Both the position numbers and the translations under genes were made by a program. From a virus (Duplodnaviria > Caudoviricetes), in the IMG/VR virus record IMGVR_UViG_3300023174_000180, positions 1-60,654 of that record: 60,654 bases of DNA; one strand, 5' to 3'. The notes beneath the pieces are model-generated. The model had not been told where the DNA came from. It searched no databases and saw nothing but the letters and a program-made list of their open reading frames with translations. Shown in pieces: positions 1,541-58,346 of this stretch. The first letter of the stretch is position 1; each line of letters begins with the position of its first letter.

Positions 1541-1546
1541 GTGTAA
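1541..1546 (+). promoter_or_regulatory. GTGTAA putative late-promoter motif
   Basis: 8 nt before ATG 1555. Confidence 0.7.
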
Positions 1547-1554
1547 TTTTAATT

Positions 1555-1791
1555 ATGAATAATAAAACACAAACATATTTTACAACCCTATTAGTATCAG
1601 TAGCTTTATTTGGCCTAATTAAAATAGGATTATATTACTTTAATAAACCTAAAACAGTATCCTATACTAAAGTAGACAAAAAAGAAGAAATTATATTGAT
1701 TAAAAAAGCTGAACCTGTTACTCCTAAAGAAAATAAACCAAAAGTAACAAAAAATGGCTTAACTAGTGGTGGCAATTGGCATAGTAGATGA
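1555..1791 (+). CDS. small membrane-anchored protein
   Basis: N-terminal hydrophobic helix, Lys-rich tail. Confidence 0.65.
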   Translation: MNNKTQTYFTTLLVSVALFGLIKIGLYYFNKPKTVSYTKVDKKEEIILIKKAEPVTPKENKPKVTKNGLTSGGNWHSR

Positions 1792-4678: not shown

Positions 4679-4681
4679 TAG

Positions 4682-4710
4682 TTGACAAAATTTAATAAAT
4701 ATAGTATATT
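4682..4710 (+). promoter_or_regulatory. sigma70-like promoter
   Basis: TTGACA-N17-TATATT; ATG 4717 lies 6 nt downstream. Confidence 0.7.
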
Positions 4711-4716
4711 ATAAAT

Positions 4717-6036: not shown

Positions 6037-6047
6037 AGCTAATTTAT

Positions 6048-6075
6048 TTACACTAAATTAAAAAATATGGTGTAA
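6048..6075. promoter_or_regulatory. divergent pair of GTGTAA motifs (6048-6053 minus, 6070-6075 plus)
   Basis: TTACAC-N16-GTGTAA between divergent genes. Confidence 0.75.
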
Positions 6076-6092
6076 AAGAATATGTAAGTATA

Positions 6093-10993: not shown

Positions 10994-11001
10994 AATATAT
11001 T

Positions 11002-11030
11002 TAGAATATTTTAATTTAAATAGATATAAT
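11002..11030 (+). promoter_or_regulatory. sigma70-like promoter for the sigma/terminase operon
   Basis: TAGAAT-N17-TATAAT; ATG 5 nt downstream. Confidence 0.6.
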
Positions 11031-11035
11031 ACTCT

Positions 11036-11470
11036 ATGTTAAAGGCATATTGTTCAAATTGCGGATCTCCAACAGAATATTCTTTAGCTAAACCTAAATT
11101 TTGCACTAATTGTGGTTTTTCTTTTATAAATAATACACCTGTAGCGAATAAATCAATTCAAGTTCAACATCCAGTTAAAGCTAAAAGGATAATTAATGAA
11201 GACCACGATGAATATGAAGATGAAAACGTAGAAGTTGAAGAAATTAAAGAATTACCAAATATTGAAAATTTAGATTTTGACATAACAATCTCTCCTTCAA
11301 ATATTGAAAAAATTGGAGATTTGGCTGGTACATCAAAAGAAAATTTATTAAGAAGACAAGAGGATAATACGGCTTCACAAGCTGATGAAAAATTTTTAGA
11401 AAATTTTGCTAAAGAAGCTGGAGCTATTCGCCCAAAAAATCGCGTTAGAAAGTTGAAAAATGGCGAGTAA
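11036..11470 (+). CDS. zinc-ribbon protein with acidic middle
   Basis: YCSNCG...KFCTNCG. Confidence 0.8.
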   Translation: MLKAYCSNCGSPTEYSLAKPKFCTNCGFSFINNTPVANKSIQVQHPVKAKRIINEDHDEYEDENVEVEEIKELPNIENLDFDITISPSNIEKIGDLAGTSKENLLRRQEDNTASQADEKFLENFAKEAGAIRPKNRVRKLKNGE

Positions 11471-12146
11471 AAAAACCATAAAATTTGAAAACTATATTAG
11501 GGAGATAGACCAAGAAATAACAAAAAGAAAACATAAGTGGAATTTGACTGCGATTGCTTGGATGGATTTTAATGACGTATCTCAAATATTAAGATTTCAT
11601 ATTTATAGAAAATGGCATTTATATGACCAAAACAAACCGCTAGCTCCATGGATTAACAGAATCATAAGTAATCAAATCAAAAATTTAATAAGAAACAATT
11701 ACAGTAATTATACAAGGCCATGCTTGAAATGTTCTGCTGCTGAAAATGAAGATGGATGCGCTATTTACAGTAAGCAATGCTCTCAATGTCCACTATACGC
11801 AAATTGGGAAAAAAATAAAAAAATTGCTCATGATACAAAATTGACTTTAAGTTTAGACAATCATGCAATAGAGGTTAATAGAATTCCAAACGAAAATTTT
11901 AACATAGAAGAATCTGCTAAAAATTTACATTTCAAAATGGAAAAAGTTTTAAAACCTATAGAGTGGAAAGCTTATAAATTGTTGTATGTAGATGGAAAAA
12001 ATGAGCAGCAGGTAGCTAAATTAATGGGATACAGAACAACGGAAAAGAATAGAATGGCTGGATATAAACAAATTAAAAATCTAAAGAAAGCTATAATGCA
12101 TAAAGTAAAAAAACATTTGTATAATGGCGACGTTGATATTATATGA
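11460..12146 (+). CDS. phage sigma70/ECF-like factor with Cys-rich insert
   Basis: Region 2-like YDQNKPLAPWINRIISNQIKNLIR; insert CLKC...C...CSQC; region 4 HTH-like LKPIEWKAYKLLYVDGKNEQQVAKLMGY. Confidence 0.75.
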   Translation: MASKKTIKFENYIREIDQEITKRKHKWNLTAIAWMDFNDVSQILRFHIYRKWHLYDQNKPLAPWINRIISNQIKNLIRNNYSNYTRPCLKCSAAENEDGCAIYSKQCSQCPLYANWEKNKKIAHDTKLTLSLDNHAIEVNRIPNENFNIEESAKNLHFKMEKVLKPIEWKAYKLLYVDGKNEQQVAKLMGYRTTEKNRMAGYKQIKNLKKAIMHKVKKHLYNGDVDII

Positions 12147-13237: not shown

Positions 13238-14169
13238 GTATTATATGCAAAGTAGATGGTAAAGAGTTCAAAGATGAAAAAAGTCTTCATCTTGCTCTTA
13301 GGGGTTATGGCTTAAATAAAGAAAAATATTATCATCAATATTATCCCAAGAAAGATTTGTTAACTGGAGAAACAATAAACTTTAAAACTAAAGAGCAGTA
13401 TTTAAATAGCGATTTTAACGATAAAAATAATATGAAGAAGTGGCTTAAATCTCAGCCATTAGAAAAATCTAAGGAATACTGCATTGATTTATTAAAAAAA
13501 AGAAAAAAAGATAAAAATTTAATTTATAGCCCTTCTCAAATAGAGCTTAGAACAATTATGAGCCCTTCTATAGTTTTCTATAATAAAATTTTTGATGATT
13601 ATTATGATGTTTGCTCTAGTTTAGGGTTAGAGAATAAGTTTATTCATCCTAAAAATATATCAAATCAATTTAATTTTAAATTAACTAAAGACGATACTAT
13701 GTATGTAGACACCAGAGAGCAAAATTGGTTAAAATTTAATATACCATTTGAGATTAAAACATTACCTTATGGGGACTATACATGTAGTAATGATAATTGC
13801 AATTGCTATATAGAAAGAAAAAGTTTAAGTGATTTTATAAGCACACTAAGCGTAGGAAATCTAGAAAGATTTAAAAAAGAAATACAAAAAGCTCATCAAA
13901 ATGGATCATATCTGGTTGTAGTAATAGAAGAAAAGCTCCAGAATGCTTTGAGCTTTCAATACTTGCCTCATATTAGTAAAAAAATTAAAGCTACTCCAGA
14001 GTTTATATTTCACAACGTAAGATCACTACTACAGGAATATGATAATTTACAATTCTTATTTGTTGATGGTCGAGAAGAAATGAAAAGAACAATAGAGGCT
14101 ATATTAGCATCTAAATGTTTTTATAAAAAAGCAGATCTTCAACTAGCTTACGATTTAAAACTTTTATGA
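13234..14169 (+). CDS. ERCC4/XPF-type nuclease domain protein
   Basis: VDTREQ, LPYGDY, YIERKSLSDF; degenerate zinc-finger-like N-terminus. Confidence 0.8.
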   Translation: MSIICKVDGKEFKDEKSLHLALRGYGLNKEKYYHQYYPKKDLLTGETINFKTKEQYLNSDFNDKNNMKKWLKSQPLEKSKEYCIDLLKKRKKDKNLIYSPSQIELRTIMSPSIVFYNKIFDDYYDVCSSLGLENKFIHPKNISNQFNFKLTKDDTMYVDTREQNWLKFNIPFEIKTLPYGDYTCSNDNCNCYIERKSLSDFISTLSVGNLERFKKEIQKAHQNGSYLVVVIEEKLQNALSFQYLPHISKKIKATPEFIFHNVRSLLQEYDNLQFLFVDGREEMKRTIEAILASKCFYKKADLQLAYDLKLL

Positions 14170-16010
14170 TAGAGTGCCCTAATAAATATATCAAAGAAAT
14201 AAAAGATGTTAACGCTGAGTTAGCTCAACTTAAAGGCTTTCTTAACGACAAAGAGGCTAAAATAAGTTTAGCAAAATTTTTAAGAGCTAACATAGGTTTT
14301 ACAACAGAACTTATAAGTGGAGTTAAGTTGGCTCCATATCAAGAGATACATCTTAAAGCATTTTTTAATAGAAATTTTAATATGTGTGTCTTTGGTCGTG
14401 GTTGCGGTAAGAGTTTTATGGCTGCAGTTTTTTGTTTTCTTCAATGCGTTTTTGAACCTAATACAAAAATTTTAATAGCTGGCCCTACATTCAGAACTGC
14501 GCGTTTTATATTTAGTAATTTAGAAAAAATAGTCGATAGTCCAGGTGCAGAATTATTAGCTCAATGTTTTGGAGCAAAAGCTAAAAGAAATGATCAATTT
14601 GAATGGCAAATTAATGGAGGAAGCATTGTTGCTATCCCTCTCAACGGAGAAAAAATTCGAGGCTTTCGTGCCAATATTCTTGTGCTTGACGAGTTCCTTT
14701 TGCTTCCAGAAGAAATTATTAAAAACGTTTTAATGCCATTCTTAGTAGCTCCTCAAAACATTAAAGAGAGAATGGAGATTAGAGAATTAGAGGATAAATT
14801 GATTTCAGAAGGCGTTATGAAAGAAGAAGACCGAATGGTTTTTGAAAATACGAGTAAAATGCTTGCGTTTTCTTCTGCGAGCTTTACTTTCGAAAATCTT
14901 TATAAAACTTATAAAGAATGGTGCGAAAAAATTACCAATAATGAAAAAGGAGAAGCTACATATTTTGTAAGTCAAATCAGTTATGAAGCTCTGCCAGAGG
15001 AAATGATTGATAAAACGATTATTGAGGAAGCTCAGAATGGTGGAGCAAGTCATAGTAGTTTTTTAAGAGAATATTGTGCAAGATTTACAGATGGAAGTGA
15101 TAGTTATTTTAATGCAAAAAAAATGGAAGAATGTACTTTGAAATTAGGAGAAAGACCTCATACATTAGTAAAAGGAAATCCAAATAAAAAATATGTTCTT
15201 GGTATCGATCCGAATATGAGTGATAGTCCTAATGCGGATTATTTTGCTATGGCAGTTTTAGAGATAGACGAAGAAAAAAAACAGGCTATATTAGTTCATA
15301 CTTATTCTGGTTTAGGTAATTTAAAGAATCACGTTGCATATTTATATTATATCATGACTAATTTTAATATAGTTATGATGATTCTTGATAATGCAGGAGC
15401 AGATGTATTTTTATCTGCATGTAATGAATCTGAATTATTTAAAAAACATAAATTACATATAAATACATTTGATATAGACTCTGATTTAGAAGGAGTAGAT
15501 TATGAATTAATGATTAGAAATGCTAGAGGTAAATATAATTTAGAAGATAAAAGAATTGCTTTTAATCAAGTATTTACAAGCACATTCATAAGAAGAGCAA
15601 ACGAATACTTGCAGGCTTGTATTGACTATAAGAGAATATGGTTTGCCAGCAGAACAGCTTCAGATGAAACATTTTTTAATGAATCTGTTAATTTGACTAT
15701 ACCAATAGACTTATTAAAAGTAGAAGAAAAAAAGGACTGGACTATTCTAGACTTTATAGAAAACCAAGACGATTTTATATATCAAACTAAAAAACAATGT
15801 GCTCTTGTAGAGCATTCTTCGACTAGCAGAGGAACCCAAACATTCGATTTACCTCAGCACTTAAAAAGAAGCACATCGGCCAATAAAGCTAGAAAAGACA
15901 ATTATTCAGCATTAATGTTAGCTAATTGGGCTTTCAAATGCTATAATGATATGATGAGCCAACCAGAAAAAATAGAAAATCCAACTTTTTCTCCTATAAT
16001 GATAAAATAA
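14166..16010 (+). CDS. terL: terminase large subunit
   Basis: LAPYQ motif, GRGCGKS Walker A, ILVLDEF Walker B, FLREYCARF, LGIDP nuclease motif, C-terminal RKDNYSA; directly before portal. Confidence 0.92.
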   Translation: MIECPNKYIKEIKDVNAELAQLKGFLNDKEAKISLAKFLRANIGFTTELISGVKLAPYQEIHLKAFFNRNFNMCVFGRGCGKSFMAAVFCFLQCVFEPNTKILIAGPTFRTARFIFSNLEKIVDSPGAELLAQCFGAKAKRNDQFEWQINGGSIVAIPLNGEKIRGFRANILVLDEFLLLPEEIIKNVLMPFLVAPQNIKERMEIRELEDKLISEGVMKEEDRMVFENTSKMLAFSSASFTFENLYKTYKEWCEKITNNEKGEATYFVSQISYEALPEEMIDKTIIEEAQNGGASHSSFLREYCARFTDGSDSYFNAKKMEECTLKLGERPHTLVKGNPNKKYVLGIDPNMSDSPNADYFAMAVLEIDEEKKQAILVHTYSGLGNLKNHVAYLYYIMTNFNIVMMILDNAGADVFLSACNESELFKKHKLHINTFDIDSDLEGVDYELMIRNARGKYNLEDKRIAFNQVFTSTFIRRANEYLQACIDYKRIWFASRTASDETFFNESVNLTIPIDLLKVEEKKDWTILDFIENQDDFIYQTKKQCALVEHSSTSRGTQTFDLPQHLKRSTSANKARKDNYSALMLANWAFKCYNDMMSQPEKIENPTFSPIMIK

Positions 16011-31517: not shown

Positions 31518-31561
31518 AATTAATTAAAAATATTACCTCTATAAGTGTATAATATATAGAG

Positions 31562-36072: not shown

Positions 36073-36096
36073 AATATTAAAAATAATATTTATATA

Positions 36097-36102: not shown

Positions 36103-36112
36103 TATTATTTAT

Positions 36113-36727: not shown

Positions 36728-36730
36728 TAT

Positions 36731-37177: not shown

Positions 37178-37178
37178 A

Positions 37179-37763: not shown

Positions 37764-38587
37764 AAATCCAAAGAGATAATTTAATTTGTTCTAGCATGAT
37801 AATGTATCTGGATAACGTTATTTGTAACGAAGGAAAAGGATTTAAAAATATAAATTCTAAAATTTATCCCACTACTGCAATTTATGCTAATATGCATACT
37901 TATAGTTTGCCAGTAAAACAGGTATTAGCTGATTCATCTGTTAGCGGGGCTAATATATTAAGTGGAATATACATTAATAATAGTTTTAAAACAATAGGCT
38001 CTAATAATATAACAGGTATTAATCATTACGAAGGTCAAGTATACTTCACTCAAAACCCCAATACTGATCAAATTAGTGGTTCTTATGCTATTAAAGATTT
38101 TAATTTATACTTGACTAATAGAAAAGATCAAACCCTTATATTTGAACAAGCTTATAAAATAAGAGCTAAAACGCCTCAAACTATGACGGGTTTAGCTCCT
38201 AGTGAAGACACTATCCCAGCTATATTTATCAAAAATATAGGGGGTTATTCTAGGCCATTTGCTTTAGGAGGTGTCAAGAAATTAACCACAGACATAAGGT
38301 GTACAGTAATAACTGATAATTTATACGATTTAGACGCTTTGTGCTCATTATTAAAAGAAAAGTCTAATGCTTATTTGCCTATTATTAAGCCATCAGATTT
38401 AAAACTGAATAATTTAAATTCACTCCCTAGTGGGTTTTATAATTACAATGAATTAGCTAGTAATGCTGATTATCAATTGTATATAGATGACATTAATATA
38501 AGCAAAAATACAGATATACAGTCAGATGTAATAACGTTTAATTTGCATACAGCTTTTATTGATTTTTCTTTAAGTAATATCAAATAA
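37760..38587 (+). CDS. putative tail terminator protein
   Basis: Directly before the tail tube gene; TIPAIFI...PFALGG. Confidence 0.45.
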   Translation: MKIQRDNLICSSMIMYLDNVICNEGKGFKNINSKIYPTTAIYANMHTYSLPVKQVLADSSVSGANILSGIYINNSFKTIGSNNITGINHYEGQVYFTQNPNTDQISGSYAIKDFNLYLTNRKDQTLIFEQAYKIRAKTPQTMTGLAPSEDTIPAIFIKNIGGYSRPFALGGVKKLTTDIRCTVITDNLYDLDALCSLLKEKSNAYLPIIKPSDLKLNNLNSLPSGFYNYNELASNADYQLYIDDINISKNTDIQSDVITFNLHTAFIDFSLSNIK

Positions 38588-38641
38588 AATTTCTCTTTTA
38601 TGATATTTGACTGTAAAATAAGGAAATAGGAGATAAAAAAT

Positions 38642-39478
38642 ATGTCAGTAGCTTATTACCCATCACAAGCAGTTTTAGTCGGAGCAGATGAATTAACACT
38701 TATTCAAAGTGCTTCTGTAGATTTTAATATATCAAGGCAAGATGTCTTTGAATTCGGTACAGTTTTCGCAGTTGATACAGTTCAAGTCCAACCACCAACA
38801 GTTAACCTTAACTTTAGCTATGCAATAGCTAGTGGTACAGCCAATAACACTAATCATACAAAAATGGATCTAGATGACCTAACAACTTTATTGTCTGACA
38901 TGGCAGGAAAAACATATACTGTAAGTGGTGCAGGTAATTTAGTATTACAAAGTGGTCTAGTTAGCTCTTATGCAATTAACGCTTCTGTTGGAAATGTTCC
39001 TACTGCTACAGTTCAAGTTCAAGGTATATCTGCTACTTACACTCCTGGTAGTATTGTAAATGCAACAAGAAATGCTACAAATATTACTGCTGCAACTCCT
39101 CAAAATATGACACTAGTTGCAAGTAATGGTGGATCTAATGGAGCCGTTTCTGCTAGAAGCTTTACTGCTACTTTGGATGTGCCAAAACAATATATTTATC
39201 AATTAGGATCATTGACTCCAGTAGGAGTTATCACAAATGGTGCAGCTAAAGTAACTGTAGAGTCAGAATTCTTAATGCAAGGCTCTTCAAGTCTAAATCG
39301 CTTCGATAGAGATATCGGTACTTTAGTTCTTACCATGCCTGGTTCTGTTGGTTATACCGTAAATAATTGCAAATTAGTAAGCTATACTGAAAATGCAGGA
39401 TTAAATGATGCTTTGGTTGCAACAGCTAGGTGGGAAGCTCTAATTAAGAGTAATAACGATTTCCTAATCGGCGGTTAG
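38642..39478 (+). CDS. major tail tube protein
   Basis: IQSASVDFNISRQDVFEFG, T/S/G-rich, strong AGGAG RBS, variant motif CTGTAA at 38611; upstream of chaperones and TMP. Confidence 0.7.
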   Translation: MSVAYYPSQAVLVGADELTLIQSASVDFNISRQDVFEFGTVFAVDTVQVQPPTVNLNFSYAIASGTANNTNHTKMDLDDLTTLLSDMAGKTYTVSGAGNLVLQSGLVSSYAINASVGNVPTATVQVQGISATYTPGSIVNATRNATNITAATPQNMTLVASNGGSNGAVSARSFTATLDVPKQYIYQLGSLTPVGVITNGAAKVTVESEFLMQGSSSLNRFDRDIGTLVLTMPGSVGYTVNNCKLVSYTENAGLNDALVATARWEALIKSNNDFLIGG

Positions 39479-39510
39479 TTATATTAATTATATTAATTTT
39501 AAAACTTTAT

Positions 39511-39539
39511 TAGAAATAATAAGGTTATAAGATTATTAT
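39511..39539 (+). promoter_or_regulatory. sigma70-like promoter
   Basis: TAGAAA-N17-TATTAT; AAGGA RBS before ATG 39560. Confidence 0.45.
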
Positions 39540-39559
39540 AATATAAAGGTTAAAGGATT

Positions 39560-39766
39560 ATGCAATCAAGCAAGGAAAAAGATTATCTTAATTTTCAAAT
39601 AAGAAGAAAAATTATAAATTTATATAAGAACTTCTTCTTTATTCTAGAAGACGCTAAACTAACTGACGACCAATATCAAAAAAATCGCAAAAGAATACTA
39701 GACTTAGGCAACGATACAATCAGGGAAATAGAGGACGACATTAATAAATTTAATGTTAGTTTATGA
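39560..39766 (+). CDS. small hypothetical protein
   Basis: 68 aa with RBS. Confidence 0.7.
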   Translation: MQSSKEKDYLNFQIRRKIINLYKNFFFILEDAKLTDDQYQKNRKRILDLGNDTIREIEDDINKFNVSL

Positions 39767-40008
39767 AAAAATTTAATTTCAATTTTCCAATCAAGTCTAT
39801 TATTGAAGCAAATTTACATATGCAAACAATTCAAAAAGCTTTAATTAATGATTATAAAATATTAAATCCAAAAATAGAAACTATTACTAGCGAAAGATTT
39901 TTATCCATATACAGTTCTTGGGACGAAGATAAAAAAAATAACTTTATAAGAACTGTGGCTGGAAAAGCGAACTTTAAAAAAGCTAAAGTCTTTTTTGAGA
40001 ACAAATAA
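39763..40008 (+). CDS. small hypothetical protein
   Basis: 81 aa, 4-nt overlap with the previous gene. Confidence 0.65.
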   Translation: MKKFNFNFPIKSIIEANLHMQTIQKALINDYKILNPKIETITSERFLSIYSSWDEDKKNNFIRTVAGKANFKKAKVFFENK

Positions 40009-40014
40009 AATTCT

Positions 40015-40770
40015 ATGAATATTAAACAAATATATACCTTTAAAGTAAATAAGACAGAAGAAGTCGAAGAATCTGAAATTATTAAAAATGAAGCTGGCGA
40101 AGAGATCAAACAAGTTAAAAAAGTAAAGAAAGAAACTCCAGTAGAGTTTTGTATAAAAAAGCCAACAAGATCGCTATTTGATGACGCTGAATTATATTAT
40201 GGAATTAAACTTGCAGAATCTATAAAGGCTGGAATGTTGACTAAAACTTCTATGCTTAAGAAGTACGATGGTGATGGAGGAATTTTTACAAAAGGCGAAG
40301 AAGATGTACTTAATAAATTAGTAGATCTTTTAAAAGACAAGCAGAGAGCACTTAATGAATTAGTCTATAAAGAAGAAGAGGGCAAGACTTTAACTGATCA
40401 AGAAAATCAAGACAAAAGTATTCTCCAAGATGAAATAACTTTTGTGAAAAACCAAATGATAGAAATGGAAAATTCTAAAAGTGCTTTATTTGATCAGACA
40501 GCAGAAACAAGAGCTCGAAATAAAAGTATAGTATGGTGGATACTTCATCTGGCATATAAAAAAGATGGAGAAAACTTTACTCCATTATTTGGAGAAGGTG
40601 GCTTTGAATCTAGACTTAAGAAGTATGATGAACTTGAGGAATCCGATGATGAATTCTGGCAAAAAGTTTTACTAAAATATGCTTATTTAGTCAGTTTCTG
40701 GTACTCTGGAAAAATAATGACAGAAGAAGACTTTAAAGCCGTAGAGAATTATTACGATTCGTTATCTTGA
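40015..40770 (+). CDS. putative tail assembly chaperone
   Basis: Acidic coiled-coil protein between tail tube and TMP. Confidence 0.55.
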   Translation: MNIKQIYTFKVNKTEEVEESEIIKNEAGEEIKQVKKVKKETPVEFCIKKPTRSLFDDAELYYGIKLAESIKAGMLTKTSMLKKYDGDGGIFTKGEEDVLNKLVDLLKDKQRALNELVYKEEEGKTLTDQENQDKSILQDEITFVKNQMIEMENSKSALFDQTAETRARNKSIVWWILHLAYKKDGENFTPLFGEGGFESRLKKYDELEESDDEFWQKVLLKYAYLVSFWYSGKIMTEEDFKAVENYYDSLS

Positions 40771-41780
40771 GAAATTTACTTGAAAAAAAGTTAAAAATAG
40801 TTTTCCACGAAATGCTTGCTGGTAAAAGCCAAGCATTCGATGAATTGGATTCTAAGAATCTATATATCAAACATTACGGTGATTATGATTCTTCTATATT
40901 TGATCAATATTACATTAATTTTTATGATAAAGCTATAAATGAAGGACTGCCTTCTGAGTCAGATAAGCTTAAGTTTTTAATAAATGAAAAGGTGTGGTCT
41001 TCTGAAAATGAGTCTAAGATTGAGTACTTAGAATCTAAATTAAATAAATTAAAAGAACTTAAAAATAAAACTTATTTATTGTCTCAATTAGATAAATTAA
41101 AAAAAGAAATAGTAGATATAGAGTTTGAATTAACTAATCTAAAAAATAAAAAATCCCAGCTTTTAGACTTTACTGCTGAGAAATATGCAGACAATAAAAT
41201 GGAATACTATTACATATTAAATTCTTTTTATTTAGACGAAGATTTAAAAAATAGAAAATTCTCAGAAGAAGCTGATGATATAGAAACTTTTGGGCAATTA
41301 AACCACTATACTAGACTTCATAATCAAACTTTAGAAAAATTTAAACTACAAAATATAAAAAGAATAGCTATAGCTTCTTACTCAATGAGCTCAATGAGTC
41401 TATCACAGAATAATGCATACTATTTCTTCGGTAAGCCTATAGCTCTTTTAACTTATTATCAATCAACTTATTTTTCTTACGCTAATTATTATGAAAAAAT
41501 ATCTTCTAATTCTGAATATAAAAATGTACCAGAAGACATAAAGAAAGACGTAGATAAATTGATAGATTTCTATTCAGCTACTTCTAATTTAAGGAACAAA
41601 GTAAATCAAGAAAGAGATGTAAATGGGCCAGTCTTTGTTATGGACGCTACAGAAAAAGACTTAGATTTCTTGAATAAAAGCAAGACTAAACACGATAAAA
41701 GCGCATTAGACAGACTAGCAGAAGAACATGGTGGTGTTTTGGACTTGAATCAATTAGCGAATTTCTATAATAAAAAATAA
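40767..41780 (+). CDS. putative tail assembly chaperone 2
   Basis: TTG start overlapping the previous TGA; immediately before TMP. Confidence 0.5.
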   Translation: MRNLLEKKLKIVFHEMLAGKSQAFDELDSKNLYIKHYGDYDSSIFDQYYINFYDKAINEGLPSESDKLKFLINEKVWSSENESKIEYLESKLNKLKELKNKTYLLSQLDKLKKEIVDIEFELTNLKNKKSQLLDFTAEKYADNKMEYYYILNSFYLDEDLKNRKFSEEADDIETFGQLNHYTRLHNQTLEKFKLQNIKRIAIASYSMSSMSLSQNNAYYFFGKPIALLTYYQSTYFSYANYYEKISSNSEYKNVPEDIKKDVDKLIDFYSATSNLRNKVNQERDVNGPVFVMDATEKDLDFLNKSKTKHDKSALDRLAEEHGGVLDLNQLANFYNKK

Positions 41781-41792
41781 TTACATTTTTAA

Positions 41793-41798
41793 GTGTAA
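41793..41798 (+). promoter_or_regulatory. GTGTAA putative late-promoter motif
   Basis: 24 nt before ATG 41823, with AGGA in the leader. Confidence 0.7.
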
Positions 41799-41822
41799 TA
41801 TTATTATAGGAAAAAGGCTAAT

Positions 41823-44800
41823 ATGAGTGATGTAATTCTACCAATTGATGGAGATCTTAGGCCGTTAGAAGCTAAAGTAGCAAAATTCGCCTCTAGAGGC
41901 ATAAATTTAAATCTAAAGAACAGTATATCTCAGCCCCTTGGAAGAATCACTGGTCAAGTAAGCGAATTTAATAAGTCATTAGAAGCTTCTAATGCTCGAG
42001 TTTTGGCATTCGGAGCTTCTGCAGGTGCGGTATATGCAGTCGGTAAAGCTTTCTCAGAAATAATAAAATCGACAATAGAAGTAGAAAAACAACTAGCTGA
42101 TATTAATGTAGTATTAAATACTTCGCAAAAAAGTCTTGCTAATTTTGGTAGATCATTATTTGATATAGCAAGAAACACAGCTAATCCATTTAGTGAGGTC
42201 AGCAAAGCCGCTACTGAATTTGCTCGTCAGGGTTTAGGTGTTCAAGAAACCCTAAAAAGAACAAGTGATGCTTTAGTTTTGAGTAGATTATCTGGTTTAG
42301 ATGCAGCTAAAAGCGTTGACGCATTAACTGCAGCAGTAAACAGTTTTAGTAAAGCTGGATTAAATTCAACTCAAATTATTAATAAATTAGCTAATGTTGA
42401 TGCTGGATTTGCTGTTAGTTCTGCTGATTTGGCAGAAGCTATAAGTCGAGTTGGTAGTACTGCTCAAGACGTTGGAGTTGATCTAGATCAACTTATAGCA
42501 TTAGTTACAGCAGCACAACAAACTACAGCTAGAGGAGGAGCTGTAATTGGAAATTCTTTAAAAACAATTTTTACAAGATTACAAAGAACTGACACATTAG
42601 ACAAATTAGAAGAGCTTGGAGTTAAAGTAAGAGACTTAAGTGGGGAAACTTTGCCAGCAGTTCAAGTATTACAAAATCTTTCTAAATCATTTAACGCTTT
42701 ATCTCAATCACAAAAATCTTCTGTTGCAGAAACAGTTGGAGGTGTTTATCAAATTAATATTTTGAGAGCAGCTTTAGGAGATTTAGGAAAAGCTTACAGC
42801 ATATACGGAAATGCTCTTGATACATCAAAAAATTCTACCAATCAAGCAACTAGAAGAAATGAAGAACTTAATAAAACTGTAGATGCCCAATTAAAAACTT
42901 TAGTTAATAGCTTTACCCAAGCTAGTACAGAAATTGGAGGCATTGTATTTGCTCCAACTATAAGTAAAACTGCAAATTTATTAAATGACCTATTATCTGA
43001 TTTACAAAAGCCAGAAGAAGCCAGGTCAGCAGGAAGTCAAATTGGAACAGAGGTATTAAAAGGTCTTGGCACTTTTGTTTCTGGTCCTGGTTTAGCAATT
43101 GTTGGCACAGGTTTTATTAAAATATTTAGCGGATTAGCTAAATTTAGTGCAGAAGCTTTTAAAGGATTTTTAAATATTCAAAGTGGTTCTGATAGAGTTG
43201 CTGCAGCTCAAGAAAGAATTAATTCTATATTAGCTCAGAACCCTAGTCTAATAGAAGCAGCAATACAAAAACAAAATAGTTTAGCTTCAGTTGAGCAAAG
43301 GATACTACAAATTATAGAAGCTCAAAATGCAGCAAGACTCCAAGCCACTCAAATTTCAAATAAACTTGCTCCCACAGTTATTGCTGCGGAAAATGTAGCA
43401 GTAAGAAGATCTAGAGGAAAAGCTGGAGGTTTTATACCTAATTTTGCTGCATCTTCAGAGGATCAAATGATCGAAGATCTTGGTGCTTCAAAACATGGAT
43501 ATAAAGCTGGCAAAGCTTATCGTACAACTCTATATGACGGAACAGGTGGAAGTATTCCAGCTGTGGTTAATAGTGCTGAAAGAAGAAAAGATTTTATTAA
43601 TTCAGATGGTAAAAAAGCTTCATTAGTTATTCCTCCAAATGGATTTTCTTCAGGTTTCATACCTAACTTTGCAAGAGAGTCTGAATTTGTTAAAAATCAA
43701 AAATTATATGGTAGAAGAACAAAAGATGGTTATGTAAAATTATCTGGTTCAGAAGCTGAATACGGAACACAGCAAGGTACTAAAAAATTAGGCTTAGATA
43801 TAATTGAAGAAGGTGGACTTACATGGATTAAAGAAAAAGACTATACTAAATTAAATCTTGCCATGAGGCAAAGAGATGAAACTTTAGCTATGAAAAGAGC
43901 TGGAGATTTAAATTTAAGATCAACAGGACGAGGTGGAAAAGGTTTTGATAAATTATATAATTATTCTTTAATATATCCAGGAGCAGGTGGAACATCTAAA
44001 GAATTTCCTACTTATGGGACTATAGGAAAAAATGCAAAGATAGGATTCACTGCATTTCCATTTCCATTAGGAAAAGGAGATTTTGGTCAAGAAACTGTTG
44101 GAATGGCAAAAAATGCATTAGTTGATGTTGCTAAAAAAATAGTATCTGATGCAGGAATTCCACAAAAAGTTATTGCTAAAGATAAATTTACTAATACTGT
44201 TAGATCTAATCTTGGTTTAGATGCAGTTAATTCTTTAATCGGACAATCTTTTGAGGCTGGACTATTGGCGAGTGTAGGATCAATAGCTAATAATCGTAGT
44301 AGAAATTTAGACTTAAGTTCTGGTGAAATGAGAGCTATGGCGAAAAATTTTCCATCTGCCAGAAAATTAGCTGGTAAAAAAGGTGGAGACTTTAAAAGTG
44401 CTGTAAGTCCAGATAATCTTAATAGCATGGCTTTGAAGATAGCTAAAGCAGAAGGATTGGCGCTTCCAAGCCAAGAATTTTCTACTGGAAGAGGCGGCGG
44501 AAGAGTATCTGCTGCTTCTGGTTATGCAGCAGGTATGGATAAAGCTCTCAGTTTAGCTATTAGAAGAGAAAAAATGGCAGGTATTGATTCTGATAGAATT
44601 AAAGTAGGAAAAGACGCTAGTCTTATTAGTGATCAAAATCCTTTAGGATTGGGAGTTTATAATACCAAAGACGAACCAGCTGGTTTAAGACAAGGAATTT
44701 CTAGATACGGAAGCTCTAATCAAGCTAAATTAGCTGGTATGGCAAAGGGCTTTATACCAAATTTTGCTCAAGATAAAGCGTCTGGTGGATTAGGGGATAA

Positions 44801-47800
44801 AATATTACAATTTTCTATTATATCTAGTTTATTAGCTTCTCAAGCTAAAACTCAAGCTGAAGGTGCTGCAGAAAGAGAAAAAGAAAAAGGGGCTATATCA
44901 GAACTTACTAAAAGTGCATTAGTAGCTTCAGAAGCTTTAGAGGGATTTGGTAGCGGCGCATTCATAGGTTCATTATTTGGTAAAACAATACCTGGAGCTG
45001 TCGCAGGTGGATTATCTGGAGCATATTCTGGAGCTAATAAAATTAACATGTCACAATTTGATGGTGAAATACAAAATATTAAAAATAAAGTTGGAGAGTT
45101 AAATGACGCTGCAAATAATTTAGAAGGAGTAGCAGCTAATTTAGCACCTGATTTTGAAAAATTAATATCTGCTATGGATAGTGGTGAAAATATATCAGAA
45201 TATAAGAAAGCAATTATCGATAAAATAAATCTTGATAAAAGTTTGACTGCTCAGATGAAAACTTCTGCAATGAGCGCTTTAAATAAAGATCCAAGATCTT
45301 TACAACCATTTTTGGCTCAAATGATCAATCAGATGCGAGACGAATCTGGTATTAAAGCTATATCCGCCTCTTTAAAAGAAACTAATGTAAAAAATAGTAC
45401 GCCAAGTTTAGCTGATAAACTTATGAATCGTGTGCCAGATAATTTACCCTTTGGAATTAAAAATCAACTTCAAAATGTACTAGGCAGCAAACCTGAAATA
45501 AATAAAAATTTAGCTACTCAAGATAGTGCTACAAATTTAATGTTAGGATCATTAAGTAGTTTATCTATGAAATTAGATAATAAAAAATTTATGGATTTAA
45601 GTAAGGTTTTAGTTGATAATTCTAAAAATGCAGAAGGTTTTGTAAATGCACTCATCAGTGCAAGAAAATCAATAGGAGATGCAACAGATGATTTAGATGA
45701 ATTAAAAGAGTCTCTTAAATTAGATAAAACAGGAGTAGTTGGAAAAAATATTGTAGCTGGAGGCTTAAATGCAACTGGACAATTCTTAAATCAAAAAGTA
45801 CAGACAGCTTCAGGCTTATCTAAAAGAGAACCTGGTAGACCAGGCAAATTTAGATCTAATTTAGCTGGAGCTTCTCAAATCTATAATTTAGATTATAGTG
45901 ATCCGTTAGCTATGTCAGATGAAGGTCAAGCTGATTTAGCTAAAGGATATTTATCTCAAAGTAAAAATCCATTAATAGGTGGAAATGCTACGCTCTCTTT
46001 AAGAGATAGTTTATTATCTCAAGGTATATCAGAAGAAGATATAGCAAAACAATTTCCAGAATTTAATAAAAATATTGATGAAGCAATATCGGCAAAACAA
46101 CAACAAAAAGAAGAATCGTTAAGAAAAACTTTTGAGGTCATAAACAAAGGCAAACCATTAACTAAAGAACAAGAAGCTTTAATTAAACCAAAAAATGCTA
46201 CAAGAAAAGAATTAGTAGGAGCATATAGAAAAGAAACTGCTGAAAAAATAATGCCTACAACTACTACAAAAGTTGCTAATGGGCCAGATATACAAACTCC
46301 AGTATCTAGAAAAGATTTAGGTACAACTTATGTTCCTCCAGTTATGCCACCAGCTCCAACTGCTGAAGAGCTTCAAGCTCAAAACGATGTAATTGCATTA
46401 ACAAAAACATCAGCAGAAGTTAAAAACGCCACACAAGAAAATCCTGGCGTAATTGGACCAGTCAATCAAAATCAAAATAATGGTTTTAGTTTAAATAGTT
46501 TATTAGATAATCCAATGGTAATTGGTGGAGCTACTGGATTAATTGTTAATGGATTAAGTCGTTTGAATCCATTTGGGCGAGGAAAAAATGCTGTGGCACC
46601 AGAAATTTCACAAGGAACTACAAGTCCTTCTCCAGCACAAGGAACTACAAGTCCTTCTCCAGGTCCAAAGATACCTAAGCCAGGAACTTTTAGGCCAGGG
46701 AGTCCATTACCAAAAGGAGTACCTGTAACAAACTTGCCGACTTCTCAAAGATATTTTCCAACAGCTATGAAAGGAATTCAACAAGGAAGAAATTTACTCG
46801 AAAAAGGAAAAAATTTAATAAAACCTGCTGCTGCTGCTGGATCAAGACTTTTAGGAAACGCGGCTAATGTTGTACCAAGATTTTTAGGAGCGGGAGCAAA
46901 TCTTGCAGGTTTAGAGTTAACAGGAGCAGGAGCTGGTGCAGCTTTAGGAGCTGGTGGAGCATTCTTAGCAGGCAGTGCTATAGTTGGCACTGCTATAGGA
47001 AGTACTATTGGTGGTTACCAATTGGGAGAAATGTTCGATCCAGGAGCAGAAAAACGTGGAAATTTTGCTTATAATCTAGCTCCAAGTTTATTTGGCGGAC
47101 CAAGTAAAAAAGAACAAGAAAGACAAATAAAACAAGGAGAATATCTTCAAAATTTTAACAAAGTCCAACAAGCTAAAAGGCAACAAGAAGCTAAAGAAAA
47201 ATCCGAAAGAGATGCAAGTAGAGCTGCATCTCAAAAAAGATTAGCTGATGCTACAAAAGCAAGAGAAGATTACAACAAGCCTATAGACCCACTTCGTCCT
47301 AGCATTCCTCCACCACCACCCGCTCCAAGTAGCACCAAAGGATTGTTCCAAGAAACATATGCTAGTCAAGCTTTTCCAGGAGTTAAGGGTCTTTCTGATC
47401 AAGCTACTCCATTTTCATATGGTGATCAATTCTTTAAATCTCAAGAAGATTTAACTAGTTACAGAGATCGGGTAAAGATGGGAACAGAAGATCCAATCAA
47501 ACAAGCTCAAGAAGCCAAAAGAGAAAAAATAAATCAACAAGCGCCAGCAAAAGAAGAGGATAGAAGATCTTATGACCAAGAAGACGCCAAGATAGAAAGA
47601 GAAAGAAAAAAGCAAGAAGAAGAAATCAAAAAACAAGCAGCTGAAGCAGAAAAAGCAACAATGACTCCAGAAGGATCAAATTCAAATACTAGCAATATAA
47701 ACGTAGCTCCTGTTATTACTCTAAATGCTGGAGCTAATCAAGATGAATTAATAAAACTCGTTACTAGTAAAGTACAAGAATTTGCTCAAAATTTAATGAC

Positions 47801-47885
47801 TGAAATAGATCAAAAAATGTCAGATAGAGATAAAGGTAATGTGAATCCCCCAAGGGGAATGACTGGTAATACTTTAACTGGTTAA
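41823..47885 (+). CDS. tail tape measure protein (TP901-like N-terminal core, long mosaic C-terminal part)
   Basis: 2020 aa; EFARQG, DLAEAISRVGSTA, ARGGAVIGNSLKTIFTRL; Ala/Gly-rich hydrophobic stretches. Confidence 0.9.
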   Translation: MSDVILPIDGDLRPLEAKVAKFASRGINLNLKNSISQPLGRITGQVSEFNKSLEASNARVLAFGASAGAVYAVGKAFSEIIKSTIEVEKQLADINVVLNTSQKSLANFGRSLFDIARNTANPFSEVSKAATEFARQGLGVQETLKRTSDALVLSRLSGLDAAKSVDALTAAVNSFSKAGLNSTQIINKLANVDAGFAVSSADLAEAISRVGSTAQDVGVDLDQLIALVTAAQQTTARGGAVIGNSLKTIFTRLQRTDTLDKLEELGVKVRDLSGETLPAVQVLQNLSKSFNALSQSQKSSVAETVGGVYQINILRAALGDLGKAYSIYGNALDTSKNSTNQATRRNEELNKTVDAQLKTLVNSFTQASTEIGGIVFAPTISKTANLLNDLLSDLQKPEEARSAGSQIGTEVLKGLGTFVSGPGLAIVGTGFIKIFSGLAKFSAEAFKGFLNIQSGSDRVAAAQERINSILAQNPSLIEAAIQKQNSLASVEQRILQIIEAQNAARLQATQISNKLAPTVIAAENVAVRRSRGKAGGFIPNFAASSEDQMIEDLGASKHGYKAGKAYRTTLYDGTGGSIPAVVNSAERRKDFINSDGKKASLVIPPNGFSSGFIPNFARESEFVKNQKLYGRRTKDGYVKLSGSEAEYGTQQGTKKLGLDIIEEGGLTWIKEKDYTKLNLAMRQRDETLAMKRAGDLNLRSTGRGGKGFDKLYNYSLIYPGAGGTSKEFPTYGTIGKNAKIGFTAFPFPLGKGDFGQETVGMAKNALVDVAKKIVSDAGIPQKVIAKDKFTNTVRSNLGLDAVNSLIGQSFEAGLLASVGSIANNRSRNLDLSSGEMRAMAKNFPSARKLAGKKGGDFKSAVSPDNLNSMALKIAKAEGLALPSQEFSTGRGGGRVSAASGYAAGMDKALSLAIRREKMAGIDSDRIKVGKDASLISDQNPLGLGVYNTKDEPAGLRQGISRYGSSNQAKLAGMAKGFIPNFAQDKASGGLGDKILQFSIISSLLASQAKTQAEGAAEREKEKGAISELTKSALVASEALEGFGSGAFIGSLFGKTIPGAVAGGLSGAYSGANKINMSQFDGEIQNIKNKVGELNDAANNLEGVAANLAPDFEKLISAMDSGENISEYKKAIIDKINLDKSLTAQMKTSAMSALNKDPRSLQPFLAQMINQMRDESGIKAISASLKETNVKNSTPSLADKLMNRVPDNLPFGIKNQLQNVLGSKPEINKNLATQDSATNLMLGSLSSLSMKLDNKKFMDLSKVLVDNSKNAEGFVNALISARKSIGDATDDLDELKESLKLDKTGVVGKNIVAGGLNATGQFLNQKVQTASGLSKREPGRPGKFRSNLAGASQIYNLDYSDPLAMSDEGQADLAKGYLSQSKNPLIGGNATLSLRDSLLSQGISEEDIAKQFPEFNKNIDEAISAKQQQKEESLRKTFEVINKGKPLTKEQEALIKPKNATRKELVGAYRKETAEKIMPTTTTKVANGPDIQTPVSRKDLGTTYVPPVMPPAPTAEELQAQNDVIALTKTSAEVKNATQENPGVIGPVNQNQNNGFSLNSLLDNPMVIGGATGLIVNGLSRLNPFGRGKNAVAPEISQGTTSPSPAQGTTSPSPGPKIPKPGTFRPGSPLPKGVPVTNLPTSQRYFPTAMKGIQQGRNLLEKGKNLIKPAAAAGSRLLGNAANVVPRFLGAGANLAGLELTGAGAGAALGAGGAFLAGSAIVGTAIGSTIGGYQLGEMFDPGAEKRGNFAYNLAPSLFGGPSKKEQERQIKQGEYLQNFNKVQQAKRQQEAKEKSERDASRAASQKRLADATKAREDYNKPIDPLRPSIPPPPPAPSSTKGLFQETYASQAFPGVKGLSDQATPFSYGDQFFKSQEDLTSYRDRVKMGTEDPIKQAQEAKREKINQQAPAKEEDRRSYDQEDAKIERERKKQEEEIKKQAAEAEKATMTPEGSNSNTSNINVAPVITLNAGANQDELIKLVTSKVQEFAQNLMTEIDQKMSDRDKGNVNPPRGMTGNTLTG
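46609..46662 (+). repeat. 2 x 27-nt tandem repeat (QGTTSPSP)
   Basis: cacaaggaactacaagtccttctccag twice. Confidence 0.9.
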
Positions 47886-56210: not shown

Positions 56211-56213
56211 TTT

Positions 56214-58346
56214 ATGATTGCTTCTGGTTATATATATAGAAACATCTTAAACCAAACTGGAAATTTTAAAACCAATTGGAGGATTTCTGCAGACAATAAA
56301 ACTGGAGTATGCGAATTTGGTTTGAGCGGAAGCGTAGCACCTTATAGTAAATATAGTTATTTATTATCTGGAGGAGAAATTTATGATTCTTCTAATAAAC
56401 TTATAACTTCCTATGAGAATGGGGTAAGTTTTACGATTCAAAATGATTTTATAAATAAAGCAGATACTTTTATCTTTAATAATGAAATACAATATTTTCA
56501 TAAACCCATAGCTGATAATTATAATTTTAATTATTTTTACGTTAATCCTTCTGGATGTACAATAAATTTTGATTTTGAATTTCAAGGAGAAAGTACTGAA
56601 TTAGACGTTTTTACTTTAAACGCCAAAACAAAAAATTTAAATACAAATATCACAAATAGAAATATCACAGGCAGATTAATAAATAAAAAACCAGACTTAG
56701 AAATTAAAGTTTTTAAAGCAGACGTTCTACAAGAAAATCCTAATTATTACGTAGAAGGTTTTCCAATTAGCTTTTATGAAACTGGAGAATTCTACATTAA
56801 GCCAACCCTTGAAGATGATCCCTTCTTTGTAGATGAAATTATACCAATAAGGTTTTATACTAATTTTGGAAATATTGATAAAAATATATCAATTACAGGA
56901 AAATTTTTTGATCTAGAGTTCGATTATTTATTCACTACTCCATCTGACGAAGATATTTTAGTTCCTTGGTCTGGTTTAAGAAATGTATATTTATACTATG
57001 GAAATAATAATGGCGCAAGTCTAAAATTTAATTTGACTTATGAAAGTGGAGAGACTGGCTACATATATGGACCAATACCAGTTTCTGGAAATTACTCTAC
57101 TATAATAAGCGGATATGTAAGTGGATCTGGGTACATATCTAAAATTATAGAAGATTATGTAAATTTTACTGGATATAATGATTTTGAAAAAAGAAGATTT
57201 GTAAGTGGTGTCACAGGTTTTGAACTTTCTAAATATATTTATGCTACAGGTTTTGTTGAGTATAATTATAGTTTGACTGGTACTGGGTTAGGTACTGGCA
57301 TAATATATAAAGATATATACTCCTCTGGTTTAGTTGATAGAAAAATATCTGGCTATGTACCTTATCTTGGCGGTGGAGCTATCTTTTTTGGCGAAGACTA
57401 TTTCTTGGGTACTGGATTTGATGCAGATGAAAACAATAATAAAGTAATAATAACTGGTTACGCTATTTCTGGAATTGGTAATAAAAAATTATACTATACT
57501 GGTTCTATAACAGGAATAAACTTAAATGAAGGTCAATATTATGATAAATTATTTGAATATAAATTTATAAAAGAAGATTTTTATTATACATCTCCAGCTT
57601 ATACATTAACTGGCACTGGTTATGCAACAAATTTTAATTTAAAAACTGGTATAGTTGATGAAAAGTTTTTCATTAATTTTGACGAAGGATATTATTTTTT
57701 TGATAAAGAAAGTAGAAGTCGTACTGGATTCTATAATATATCTGACGAAACTAAAGTCATAACTGGGCTATCTGGATTATTGAATTGTAATTTTAGTCAA
57801 GATAGAAAATATATAGGCGTCGGTAATATGAGTGGAAATAATAATTTCCATCTATTTATTAGTGCATGCTATAAATCTGGAATTTATTTTAAATATTTAG
57901 CTACTGGTTCTGGTTATAATATTAAATATTATATATTAAACTCATCTGGAGAACCAGAATCTTTAGATATTAATGTGCCAAAATTTGTTACAATTTCGCC
58001 CAGTCAACAGGAGATGTCTTTTAATAGAGAAAATATAGACTACTTAACTAAGAATATTTATGGATCAGAAATTAGAACAAGAATATCTCATATTGGAAAA
58101 ACTTCAAGTGGTAGTGGTTATTTTAATAATATATTTTCTGCTGGAGGAGTTGGATGCGACAATAGTGGAGTATGGATTCACGAGGCTCCTGCAATTGAAA
58201 AAATAGATAAATACTACTCTCCTTTATTTTTATCAAATGTTAATGTTAATATACTAAGCCATGAAGATACATACTACCATTTTTATGATAATTCTTTGAA
58301 TTTAAAAGTATTAAAGTCTGGAACAAGAATAGGAAATATAGTGTAA
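56214..58346 (+). CDS. tail-associated protein with dense [S/T]G motifs
   Basis: 710 aa, Tyr/Gly/Ser/Thr-rich. Confidence 0.65.
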   Translation: MIASGYIYRNILNQTGNFKTNWRISADNKTGVCEFGLSGSVAPYSKYSYLLSGGEIYDSSNKLITSYENGVSFTIQNDFINKADTFIFNNEIQYFHKPIADNYNFNYFYVNPSGCTINFDFEFQGESTELDVFTLNAKTKNLNTNITNRNITGRLINKKPDLEIKVFKADVLQENPNYYVEGFPISFYETGEFYIKPTLEDDPFFVDEIIPIRFYTNFGNIDKNISITGKFFDLEFDYLFTTPSDEDILVPWSGLRNVYLYYGNNNGASLKFNLTYESGETGYIYGPIPVSGNYSTIISGYVSGSGYISKIIEDYVNFTGYNDFEKRRFVSGVTGFELSKYIYATGFVEYNYSLTGTGLGTGIIYKDIYSSGLVDRKISGYVPYLGGGAIFFGEDYFLGTGFDADENNNKVIITGYAISGIGNKKLYYTGSITGINLNEGQYYDKLFEYKFIKEDFYYTSPAYTLTGTGYATNFNLKTGIVDEKFFINFDEGYYFFDKESRSRTGFYNISDETKVITGLSGLLNCNFSQDRKYIGVGNMSGNNNFHLFISACYKSGIYFKYLATGSGYNIKYYILNSSGEPESLDINVPKFVTISPSQQEMSFNRENIDYLTKNIYGSEIRTRISHIGKTSSGSGYFNNIFSAGGVGCDNSGVWIHEAPAIEKIDKYYSPLFLSNVNVNILSHEDTYYHFYDNSLNLKVLKSGTRIGNIV
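58341..58346 (+). promoter_or_regulatory. GTGTAA motif overlapping the stop codon of the upstream gene
   Basis: 10 nt before ATG 58357. Confidence 0.65.

Follow-up and report, generated by a model that had tools for sequence, protein, structure and literature searches.

A GTGTAA box heading gene blocks is a candidate start-proximal promoter element in a lineage of uncultured aquatic phages

The hexamer GTGTAA recurs shortly upstream of gene blocks in the IMG/VR record IMGVR_UViG_3300023174_000180, a 60,654-nucleotide (nt) phage sequence (Duplodnaviria; Caudoviricetes) that was analysed over its whole length (hereafter the window) and that represents by estimate ~40% of the phage genome, at a GC content of 30%. 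Judged from its placement and conservation, the box very probably functions as a promoter. An initial annotation of this DNA had described it as a −10-only, orientation-specific and phage-specific promoter element, and that description is supported by the position of the box before genes, the lack of an accompanying −35 element, a geometry of 8–10 nt to the start codon and conservation across dozens of relatives. The same annotation had named the sigma factor encoded at 11460 as its reader, an assignment that the genomes compared below make doubtful and probably wrong.

All 14 exact copies listed initially before gene starts were recovered at the same coordinates and strands (Table 1), and the two further plus-strand copies noticed inside genes, at 9569 and 24235, proved to be the only others on that strand; six intragenic copies on the minus strand (12651, 20728, 26565, 39037, 48421 and 48490) were absent from the earlier list. 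GTGTAA is not over-represented in total, as 22 copies were observed against 25.75 +/- 5.5 in dinucleotide shuffles. Within sense-strand windows of −40 to −1 relative to the start codon, 14 of the 22 copies were found before 14 of the 58 genes (binomial p 6.6e-18). No other hexamer is as strongly enriched there; the next in rank are its own overlaps (AGTGTA and TGTAAT) and then TATAAT. The non-coding share of the window amounts to merely 1568 of 60654 bases (2.6%).

Genes contain fewer copies than expected on either strand, as measured against codon-order and synonymous-codon shuffles: on the sense strand, 4 copies were found where ~10 were expected (P about 0.02–0.03), and on the antisense strand 6 where ~12 were expected (P about 0.03–0.05). 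Two of the four sense copies lie at the 3′ ends of genes and serve the next gene. The plus-strand copies at 24235 and 9569 may be chance occurrences: the former is not kept in the related locus L008, and the latter is kept in L004 but codes Gly-Val there. Since depletion on the antisense strand is expected for a signal in DNA and not for one in RNA, it favours the promoter.

Near-matches and gene labels held in part. Among the variants proposed alongside the exact boxes, those at 31545 (GTGTAT) and 38611 (CTGTAA) were confirmed and recur as variants in relatives, whereas ATGTAA at 32890 falls within the gene 32064–33596, precedes no gene in the open-reading-frame map and is therefore not supported. 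Among the products said to be headed by the box, the tape measure, fibre-like (21165), lysozyme-like (30891) and protease-like (6843) assignments stood, whereas no family match was obtained for the ‘portal' (16032), which is a portal by position only, the ‘neck' and the ‘tail tube'. The qualifier ‘late' likewise fits the virion genes, yet the regulon also contains PhoH, ferredoxin-like and protease-like genes, so that it is safer to speak of ‘non-early (middle plus late)' genes. Upstream of the 38642 gene, the one initially called tail tube, in the region 38588–38641, all 8 of the 8 relatives compared (L136–L143) retain TGTAA(T), as either ATGTAAT or CTGTAAT, and a strong AGGAGA leader; this [A/C]TGTAAT variant may be a separately tuned or separately read promoter.

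Conservation was assessed in loci gathered by searching with the window sigma and with more distant members of its family, which gave 72 loci of at least 9 kb and 51 after removal of near-duplicates. Among these 51 non-redundant loci, GTGTAA is the first-ranked upstream hexamer in 15, is within the top three in 31 and within the top ten in 37. In the complete relatives G001 and G002 it ranks first as well, before 22 of 267 genes (p 2.5e-17) and 18 of 265 genes (p 3.3e-13), respectively. The host-type −35 word TTGACA makes up another enriched class, clear in G001 (p 1.1e-11) but weaker in G002 (p 4.3e-4, nineteenth among the twenty words listed). Where orthologous sites were compared, the box persists although the sequence on either side of it has drifted (Table 1). 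Under the same procedure, the control phages Stahl (of Bacillus) and phiEco32 returned a Shine-Dalgarno word on top (AGGAGG or AAGGAG), with GTGTAA upstream of genes in 2 of 29 copies and 1 of 15 copies, respectively. As a separate observation, L100, a locus with a distant member of the sigma family, has TCGTAA rather than GTGTAA as its top upstream word (5 of 15 copies, p 3e-4), which may be a diverged box.

The anatomy of the box was examined over 1.61 Mb of sequence from the window and its relatives, containing 1892 called genes and 798 GTGTAA copies, among which 301 lie at most 60 nt upstream of a start codon and 189 of those are non-redundant. The gap from box to start codon (Nx for x nt) was N8 in 44, N9 in 25, N10 in 18 and N11 in 8 of the 189 sites and N7 in none, with a tail reaching ~57; several gaps of N3–N6 arose because a TTG or GTG further upstream was called as the start, an ATG being present at N9–N20. 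No position from −50 to −6 exceeds 0.13 bit across the 189 sites, confirming that no −35 is shared. The flanks are A/T-rich: A or G stands immediately 5′ of the box in 135 of the sites, and the base 3′ of it is T in 93, A in 58 and G in only 6, giving an extended form W-A/G-GTGTAA-T/A. A Shine-Dalgarno-like word was found in 0 of 106 sites with a gap of N11 or less, where there is no room for one, versus 10 of 37 with a gap above N20 (Fisher p 4.9e-7). Furthermore, a pyrimidine precedes the ATG in 42 of the 44 N8 sites versus 52 of 79 long-leader sites (Fisher p 1.2e-4), a preference that fits transcription initiation at the A of ATG under the usual Y(−1)R(+1) rule.

Because only 8–10 nt typically separate the box from the ATG, it is either a start-proximal (−10-type) element or a part of the RNA; a role as a −35 or activator site was considered and rejected, as this distance leaves no room for a downstream −10. 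The 56-nt divergent region 6037–6092, between the ferredoxin-like and PhoH genes, must hold two promoters, and its sole conserved blocks are two boxes placed back to back, one per strand and 16 nt apart, the pair being kept in L004, L007, L008 and L011; this arrangement therefore argues for a promoter role. Moreover, in L140–L144 a GC hairpin followed by a T-run directly abuts the GTGTAA before the homologue of the 39560 gene, and the same position in the window (39479–39559) and in closer relatives carries a TATAAT-type element. The box thus sits where a promoter is needed and can be exchanged with a classical −10; at this site the two elements appear, by comparison of the sequences, to be interchangeable through promoter turnover.

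Several points weigh against a promoter. The sharp gap of 8–10 nt is also what a ribosome-binding element would produce, GTGTAA is outside the ten best upstream hexamers in 14 of the 51 related loci, and the relatives' genes come from a crude longest-open-reading-frame caller, so some of the gaps are wrong. An improbable alternative is that GUGUAA acts in RNA, either as a non-Shine-Dalgarno initiation signal 8–10 nt before the AUG or as a processing site that generates 5′ ends close to start codons. Besides the sharply peaked gap, it would account for the missing Shine-Dalgarno-like words in the short-gap class, in a phage where such words are weak overall (16 of 44 motif-less genes, by a loose definition). 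Yet 83 of the 189 sites lie 12–57 nt from the start, beyond ribosome-binding distance, the antisense depletion inside genes is left unexplained, and the divergent pairs and terminator-abutting sites need promoters where no other conserved element is present. The box also heads blocks of genes (14 of 58 genes) instead of every gene. It does not resemble a Shine-Dalgarno-type site either, as it is not purine-rich, stands before that minority of genes only and varies in distance.

If the box is a promoter element, it could in principle be read by a host sigma, either the primary one remodelled by a phage factor or an alternative one, with no phage sigma involved. TGTAAT is one position off TATAAT, the variant at 31545 reads GTGTATAAT, and GTGTAA and TATAAT-type elements swap at one orthologous site. 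There is also a precedent in the Thermus phage P23-45, most transcripts of which are reportedly leaderless. Its middle and late promoters are described as extended −10 (TATAAT-type) promoters used by the host sigma A, with the phage protein gp39 blocking −35-dependent promoters (PMC7403470); the GTGTAA units are similar in that a −35 is not needed and promoters lie next to start codons, and they differ in that P23-45 relies on the host primary sigma plus a phage −35 blocker. Against a host reader, the base after the box is T in only 93 and A in 58 of the 189 sites, so that conservation applies to GTGTAA rather than to TGTAAT. The same six bases moreover recur, enriched, in phages spanning GC contents of 29–51%, and related sequence occurs in freshwater and marine metatranscriptome runs; the hosts of these phages probably differ, which a phage-borne reader fits better, and all of them carry sigma factors of their own. 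Reading by a host sigma is thus given a low probability.

Whereas the motif, its placement, conservation and spacing, the lack of a −35 and the distribution of the sigma families described below are observed, its role as a promoter, the point of initiation and the protein that reads it are inferred from sequence evidence, and the mechanism proposed would run as follows. GTGTAA would act as a single-element −10-type promoter for the core RNA polymerase of the host in complex with a sigma that the phage encodes, with transcription starting ~8–10 nt further on. For roughly one unit in two the start point would then be the A of the ATG or 1–2 nt before it, giving a leaderless or near-leaderless mRNA; the remaining units would have a leader of 12–35 nt, sometimes with a Shine-Dalgarno-like purine run. 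The regulon would comprise the non-early part of the genome, that is, auxiliary genes, packaging, head, tail and lysis, and the early genes would be served by host-type TTGACA/TATAAT promoters.

The sigma at 11460 is the sole one encoded in the window, and carries a four-cysteine insert between sigma2 and sigma4 (hereafter the Cys4 sigma) that is presumably a zinc module. By its sequence profiles and predicted fold, the protein is a member of the sigma-70 family. Its region 2 matches PF04542 at 23.6 bits in the protein search (cut-off 24) and at 25.7 bits, above the cut-off, in a six-frame search, and many close homologues carry PF04542; TIGR02937 matches residues 27–191 with E 2.6e-7 and 30.4 bits, below its own cut-off of 42.9. 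The AlphaFold2 model has a mean pLDDT of 92.8, and Foldseek returned sigma factors at every listed rank to rank 13 (E about 2e-3, probability 0.95–1.0), with Mycobacterium tuberculosis sigma H and Escherichia coli sigma E as the best structural matches; the E-values are weak because the two domains move independently. The family is very common in metagenomes, with 1844 homologues (E <= 0.001) and, in a separate search, 425 representative clusters, 148 of them at E <= 1e-30, and it has no tblastn match among 50,697 GenBank phage records. The gene belongs to a conserved operon encoding, in order, a zinc-ribbon protein, the Cys4 sigma, a protein of ~360 amino acids (aa), an ERCC4 nuclease and the large terminase. 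The zinc-ribbon gene (11036) overlaps the sigma gene, and G001 and G002 have its counterpart in the same place, immediately before the Cys4 sigma (31–33% identity); its product may be a partner of the sigma.

That the Cys4 sigma, maybe with the adjacent zinc-ribbon protein, reads the same one-box promoter is possible though doubtful. Besides being the only sigma in the window, its family is strongly conserved, as is the motif in loci anchored on it. Moreover, its operon in the window is preceded by a host-type TATAAT element (...TAGATATAAT) and no GTGTAA, which suits a regulator that has to be present ahead of the genes it controls. A GTGTAA box does stand before the operon in G001 and G002, so the Cys4 sigma may be a regulon target in some relatives; self-transcription of this kind seems also to occur in phiEco32, in which genes 40 and 36 share a strand, 36 being the downstream one, and gene 40 stands behind a promoter dependent on gp36 (PMC8948821); the gene order suggests that one transcript covers both. 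However, the association with the motif is partly built in, as all the associated loci were found by searching with the Cys4 sigma, and every complete or near-complete genome with it also has the second sigma described below.

Two genomes bear on the assignment of the box to 11460. G010 (139 kb, 98% complete) and G011 (146 kb, 100% complete) are both strong users of the motif in the same geometry, and no Cys4 family member was detected in either, even at E <= 10. AGTGTA/GTGTAA are the top upstream words in both: 18 of 52 GTGTAA copies fall within −40 to −1 of gene starts in G010 (p 1.2e-15) and 9 of 38 in G011 (p 5.1e-8). Gaps of N8 and N9 dominate in the two genomes (in G010, N8 in 12 and N9 in 5 of 29 GTGTA(A/T) sites). 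As a practical caution, the sigma that stands out in the window probably does not read the box.

A second sigma-like protein, termed type B, may well be the reader, and more probably so than the Cys4 sigma, a proposal that is made tentatively from gene content across genomes. It has ~190–210 aa, a sigma4-like helix-turn-helix and, in two of three members tested, a Sigma70_r2 match at E about 1e-3; the member in G005 scores 44.7 bits against TIGR02937, above the cut-off. The gene adjoins an ATPase/kinase-like gene, and a gene for a single-stranded-DNA-binding-protein-like product, so named from its N-terminal sequence only, is adjacent in G005, G007 and G010 and a short distance away in G001 and G002. 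A search of viral contigs gave 22 loci, and a search of the 50,697 GenBank phage records one weak match only, which falls on a ribonucleotide reductase gene (E 8e-4). Members occur in G001–G003, G010 and G011 (88–100% complete) and also in G005–G007, G009, G012 and G013, a small sample partly chosen via type B itself that includes every record examined of at least 83% completeness; the type-B profile matches G001 at E 1.6e-35, G002 at 3.4e-33, G003 at 7.5e-64 and G013, an 87%-complete member of the wider clade of the window and the only record of that clade in which type B was seen, at 4.2e-48. It was not found in the fragments G000, G004 and G014–G017, which are 36–72% complete, and none of the genomes examined in that same small and partly type-B-selected sample has the motif and was shown to lack type B. 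The type-B gene lies in early-type operons and has no GTGTAA directly upstream, and in G003 its operon starts at a TTGACA promoter.

Other sigma-like genes were also found. G001 and G002 each encode further ones, of which ‘type A' is a third, additional sigma. A second sigma differing in family between phages, which would have favoured the Cys4 sigma, was considered and overturned, as the type-B profile matches G001–G003 too. G010 and G011 (L167–L181) have three sigma-like genes each, of ~178, 230 and 200 aa.

Several findings tell against type B as the reader. It was not seen in the window, the record being a ~40% fragment, and would have to lie outside it for that reason. The presence/absence argument rests on two Cys4-less genomes only; the third sigma-like gene of ~230 aa in both of these is unrelated to the Cys4 family and could substitute for it. 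In these two genomes, moreover, GTGTAT and GTGTAA are used with about equal frequency, which may mean that they have a somewhat different system, and among the genomes examined there is no complete one with the Cys4 sigma and without type B. If type B is nonetheless the reader, the host sigma would transcribe the early genes including that of the type-B sigma, which in turn would direct the GTGTAA units, the Cys4 sigma among them in some phages. A fuller version, rather unlikely as a whole, is a two-step cascade in a very large lineage of uncultured aquatic and soil phages: an early type-B sigma would read GTGTAA and yield leaderless mRNAs, and the Cys4 sigma, as a target of that regulon, would drive or tune a further class, for example the [A/C]TGTAAT promoter before the putative tail-tube gene. 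As its mRNAs would be leaderless, such a cascade would need neither the host −35 reader nor the host Shine-Dalgarno system, and the module, if real, would be portable across hosts of very different GC content.

Several known systems resemble the GTGTAA units in part. Late promoters of phage T4 (TATAAATA) are −10-only and are read by gp55 together with gp33 and the sliding clamp, gp55 being a minimal, region-2-only protein dependent on co-activators and replication. Similar to these, the GTGTAA box is a short, AT-rich, −10-only element lacking a −35, with a phage sigma-like reader proposed here; its sequence differs, and the candidate sigmas are two-domain proteins that are not known to be linked to a clamp. 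Promoters of extracytoplasmic function (ECF, group 4) sigmas, among them E. coli sigma E, require a strong −35. A match to the sigma70-ECF superfamily model was obtained for the 11460 protein, and the title of structure 5or5 has sigma E region 2 bound to GTAAAA, a −10 word also starting with GT. In contrast to ECF promoters, none of the sites has a −35, and the four-cysteine insert is not a general ECF feature.

The closest likeness is to phiEco32, whose middle and late promoters consist, according to the published account (PMC8948821), of a single element tAATGTAtA with no −35, a start 6–8 bp downstream and recognition by the phage sigma gp36 with host core RNA polymerase. Both systems thus place one box without a −35 before middle and late gene blocks and have a TGTA core in common, the hexamer being GTGTAA here and ATGTAT there; the gap of N8–10 to the ATG, with no site at N7, is compatible with the phiEco32 start, the comparison on this side being drawn from spacing alone. 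In that account (PMC8948821) gp36 is described as having no homology to region 4, whereas both candidate sigmas have a sigma4-like helix-turn-helix. No similarity to gp36 was detected, at an hhalign probability of 1.5% for the Cys4 sigma and 0.2% for type B and a BLASTP E of 23. Host, morphology and genome size differ as well, the phage analysed here being siphovirus-like and of ~150 kb. Salmonella phage 7-11, which is related to phiEco32, has bipartite late promoters GTAAtg-N16-aCTA and a sigma, gp47, with region 4 (PMC8948821); an ECF-like phage sigma with region 4, a GTAA-containing element and late genes are shared features, whereas a second box is undetectable in the 189 sites.

No description of a GTGTAA phage promoter was found in a full-text literature search. 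The GTGTAA system, a probable mode of phage gene control, is common in phages of aquatic habitats that have not been cultured. If the proposed mechanism is true, a six-base box and one small phage protein would control most non-early genes in a lineage abundant in lakes and seas; a new sigma–promoter pair with leaderless output would stand beside the few characterised (T4, SPO1, phiEco32 and 7-11), and the box would offer annotators of these genomes a simple means of placing operon starts and of choosing the true start codon.

Table 1. Boxes, promoter-like elements and genes in the window. Gaps are in nt from the last base of the box to the start codon; L numbers designate related loci.
Feature	Position	Strand	Gap	Start codon	Remarks
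GTGTAA	1541..1546	+	8	ATG 1555	78-aa gene heading a unit with HNH and lectin-like genes
GTGTAA	3731..3736	+	9	ATG 3746	orthologous sites in L007, L008, L009; first base doubles as last base of the preceding stop codon
GTGTAA	6048..6053	-	11	GTG 6036	ferredoxin-like unit
GTGTAA	6070..6075	+	17	ATG 6093	PhoH-like
GTGTAA	6831..6836	+	9	ATG 6846	protease-like gene; start given by the open-reading-frame finder, GTG 6843 at 6 nt, is an upstream-GTG artefact
GTGTAA	8197..8202	+	30	ATG 8233	purine-rich leader AAAGGAATAAG
GTGTAA	16013..16018	+	13	ATG 16032	637-aa gene right after the large terminase; box kept in L002, L007, L008, L009, L011, L013, L014 with diverged flanks
GTGTAA	18311..18316	+	14	ATG 18331	virion and fibre unit
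GTGTAA	25185..25190	+	6	ATG 25197	96-aa gene heading the unit with lysozyme-like 30891; N6 gap kept in three relatives (L002 and L011 among them)
GTGTAA	32046..32051	+	12	ATG 32064	within 3′ end of gene 31562-32071; kept in L135, L142
GTGTAA	35711..35716	+	8	ATG 35725	identical from box to ATG in 3/3 relatives
GTGTAA	36097..36102	+	10	ATG 36113	kept in 10/10 relatives (40-98% protein identity)
GTGTAA	41793..41798	+	24	ATG 41823	tape measure protein; leader AGGAAAAAGG; kept in 8/8 relatives
GTGTAA	58341..58346	+	10	ATG 58357	TAA of the box is the stop codon of gene 56214-58346
GTGTAT (variant; reads GTGTATAAT)	31545..31550	+	11	ATG 31562	kept in 2/2 relatives (L135, L142)
CTGTAA (variant)	38611..38616	+	25	ATG 38642	AGGAGA leader
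TTGACA-N17-TATATT	4679..4716	+			host-type promoter as read from the sequence; second promoter class
Small zinc-ribbon protein	11036..11470	+			N-terminal CxxC...CxxC, acidic low-complexity middle, KxxPRKL-like C-terminal tail
ECF-like sigma (sigma2 + sigma4)	11460..12146	+			invariant four-cysteine insert C88, C91, C100, C110
Large terminase, T4-type	14166-16010				
Tape measure protein	41823-47885				2020 aa
SleB-like cell-wall hydrolase	231-827	-			

Further promoter-like words were seen in the window. Extended −10 words similar to (A)TAG(T/A)TATAAT occur at ~2626 and ~11020 (regions 2609–2635 and 10994–11035) and belong, with the element at 4679, to the host-type class. The region 35230–35334, after the gene 34159–35229, holds a terminator-like GC hairpin and T-run and, behind these, a TATAAT-type element.

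Parts of the window are contained in freshwater metatranscriptome runs, with small shares only in marine runs; eight metatranscriptome runs contain part of 32001–42000. As these RNA data are assembled contigs, contig ends cannot show RNA 5′ ends. The relatives' RNA contigs have high depth over 33.1–35.2 kb and 38.6–39.4 kb. In three runs of one study they end at 35237–35243, before the predicted hairpin, and one RNA contig ends at 38633, 17 nt past the CTGTAA box; nothing was drawn from either.

The window also encodes fibre-like, lysozyme-like, PhoH and ferredoxin-like proteins. Its large terminase is only ~25% identical to the closest ones in GenBank phages, which are those of large siphoviruses of Bacillus, Clostridioides and Lactococcus. 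As for the host, the window contains no transfer RNA and no Rfam family, and no relative of the sigma was found in GTDB genomes.

In G001 (L114 and L117) and G002 (L124 and L125), several paralogous genes of ~390 aa start with M-T-H-R-(G/A)-Y-K-(Y/F)-R-I, and all of them have GTGTAA-N10 in front, a TGA immediately preceding the start codon; we presume that this N-terminus resembles those of TnpB-type transposon proteins.

At the left end of the window, positions 1–1554 have a GC content of 0.38 versus ~0.30 elsewhere; besides the SleB-like gene, this part includes 441 nt (1114–1554) without open reading frames, and it has no transfer RNA or Rfam match. A phrog_17104 domain is common to a 265-aa protein (24344–25141) and to the C-terminal ~260 residues of the protein at 26527–30057, a 1176-aa BspA-type leucine-rich-repeat protein; with E about 1e-46 in each copy, the pair is a duplicated module.

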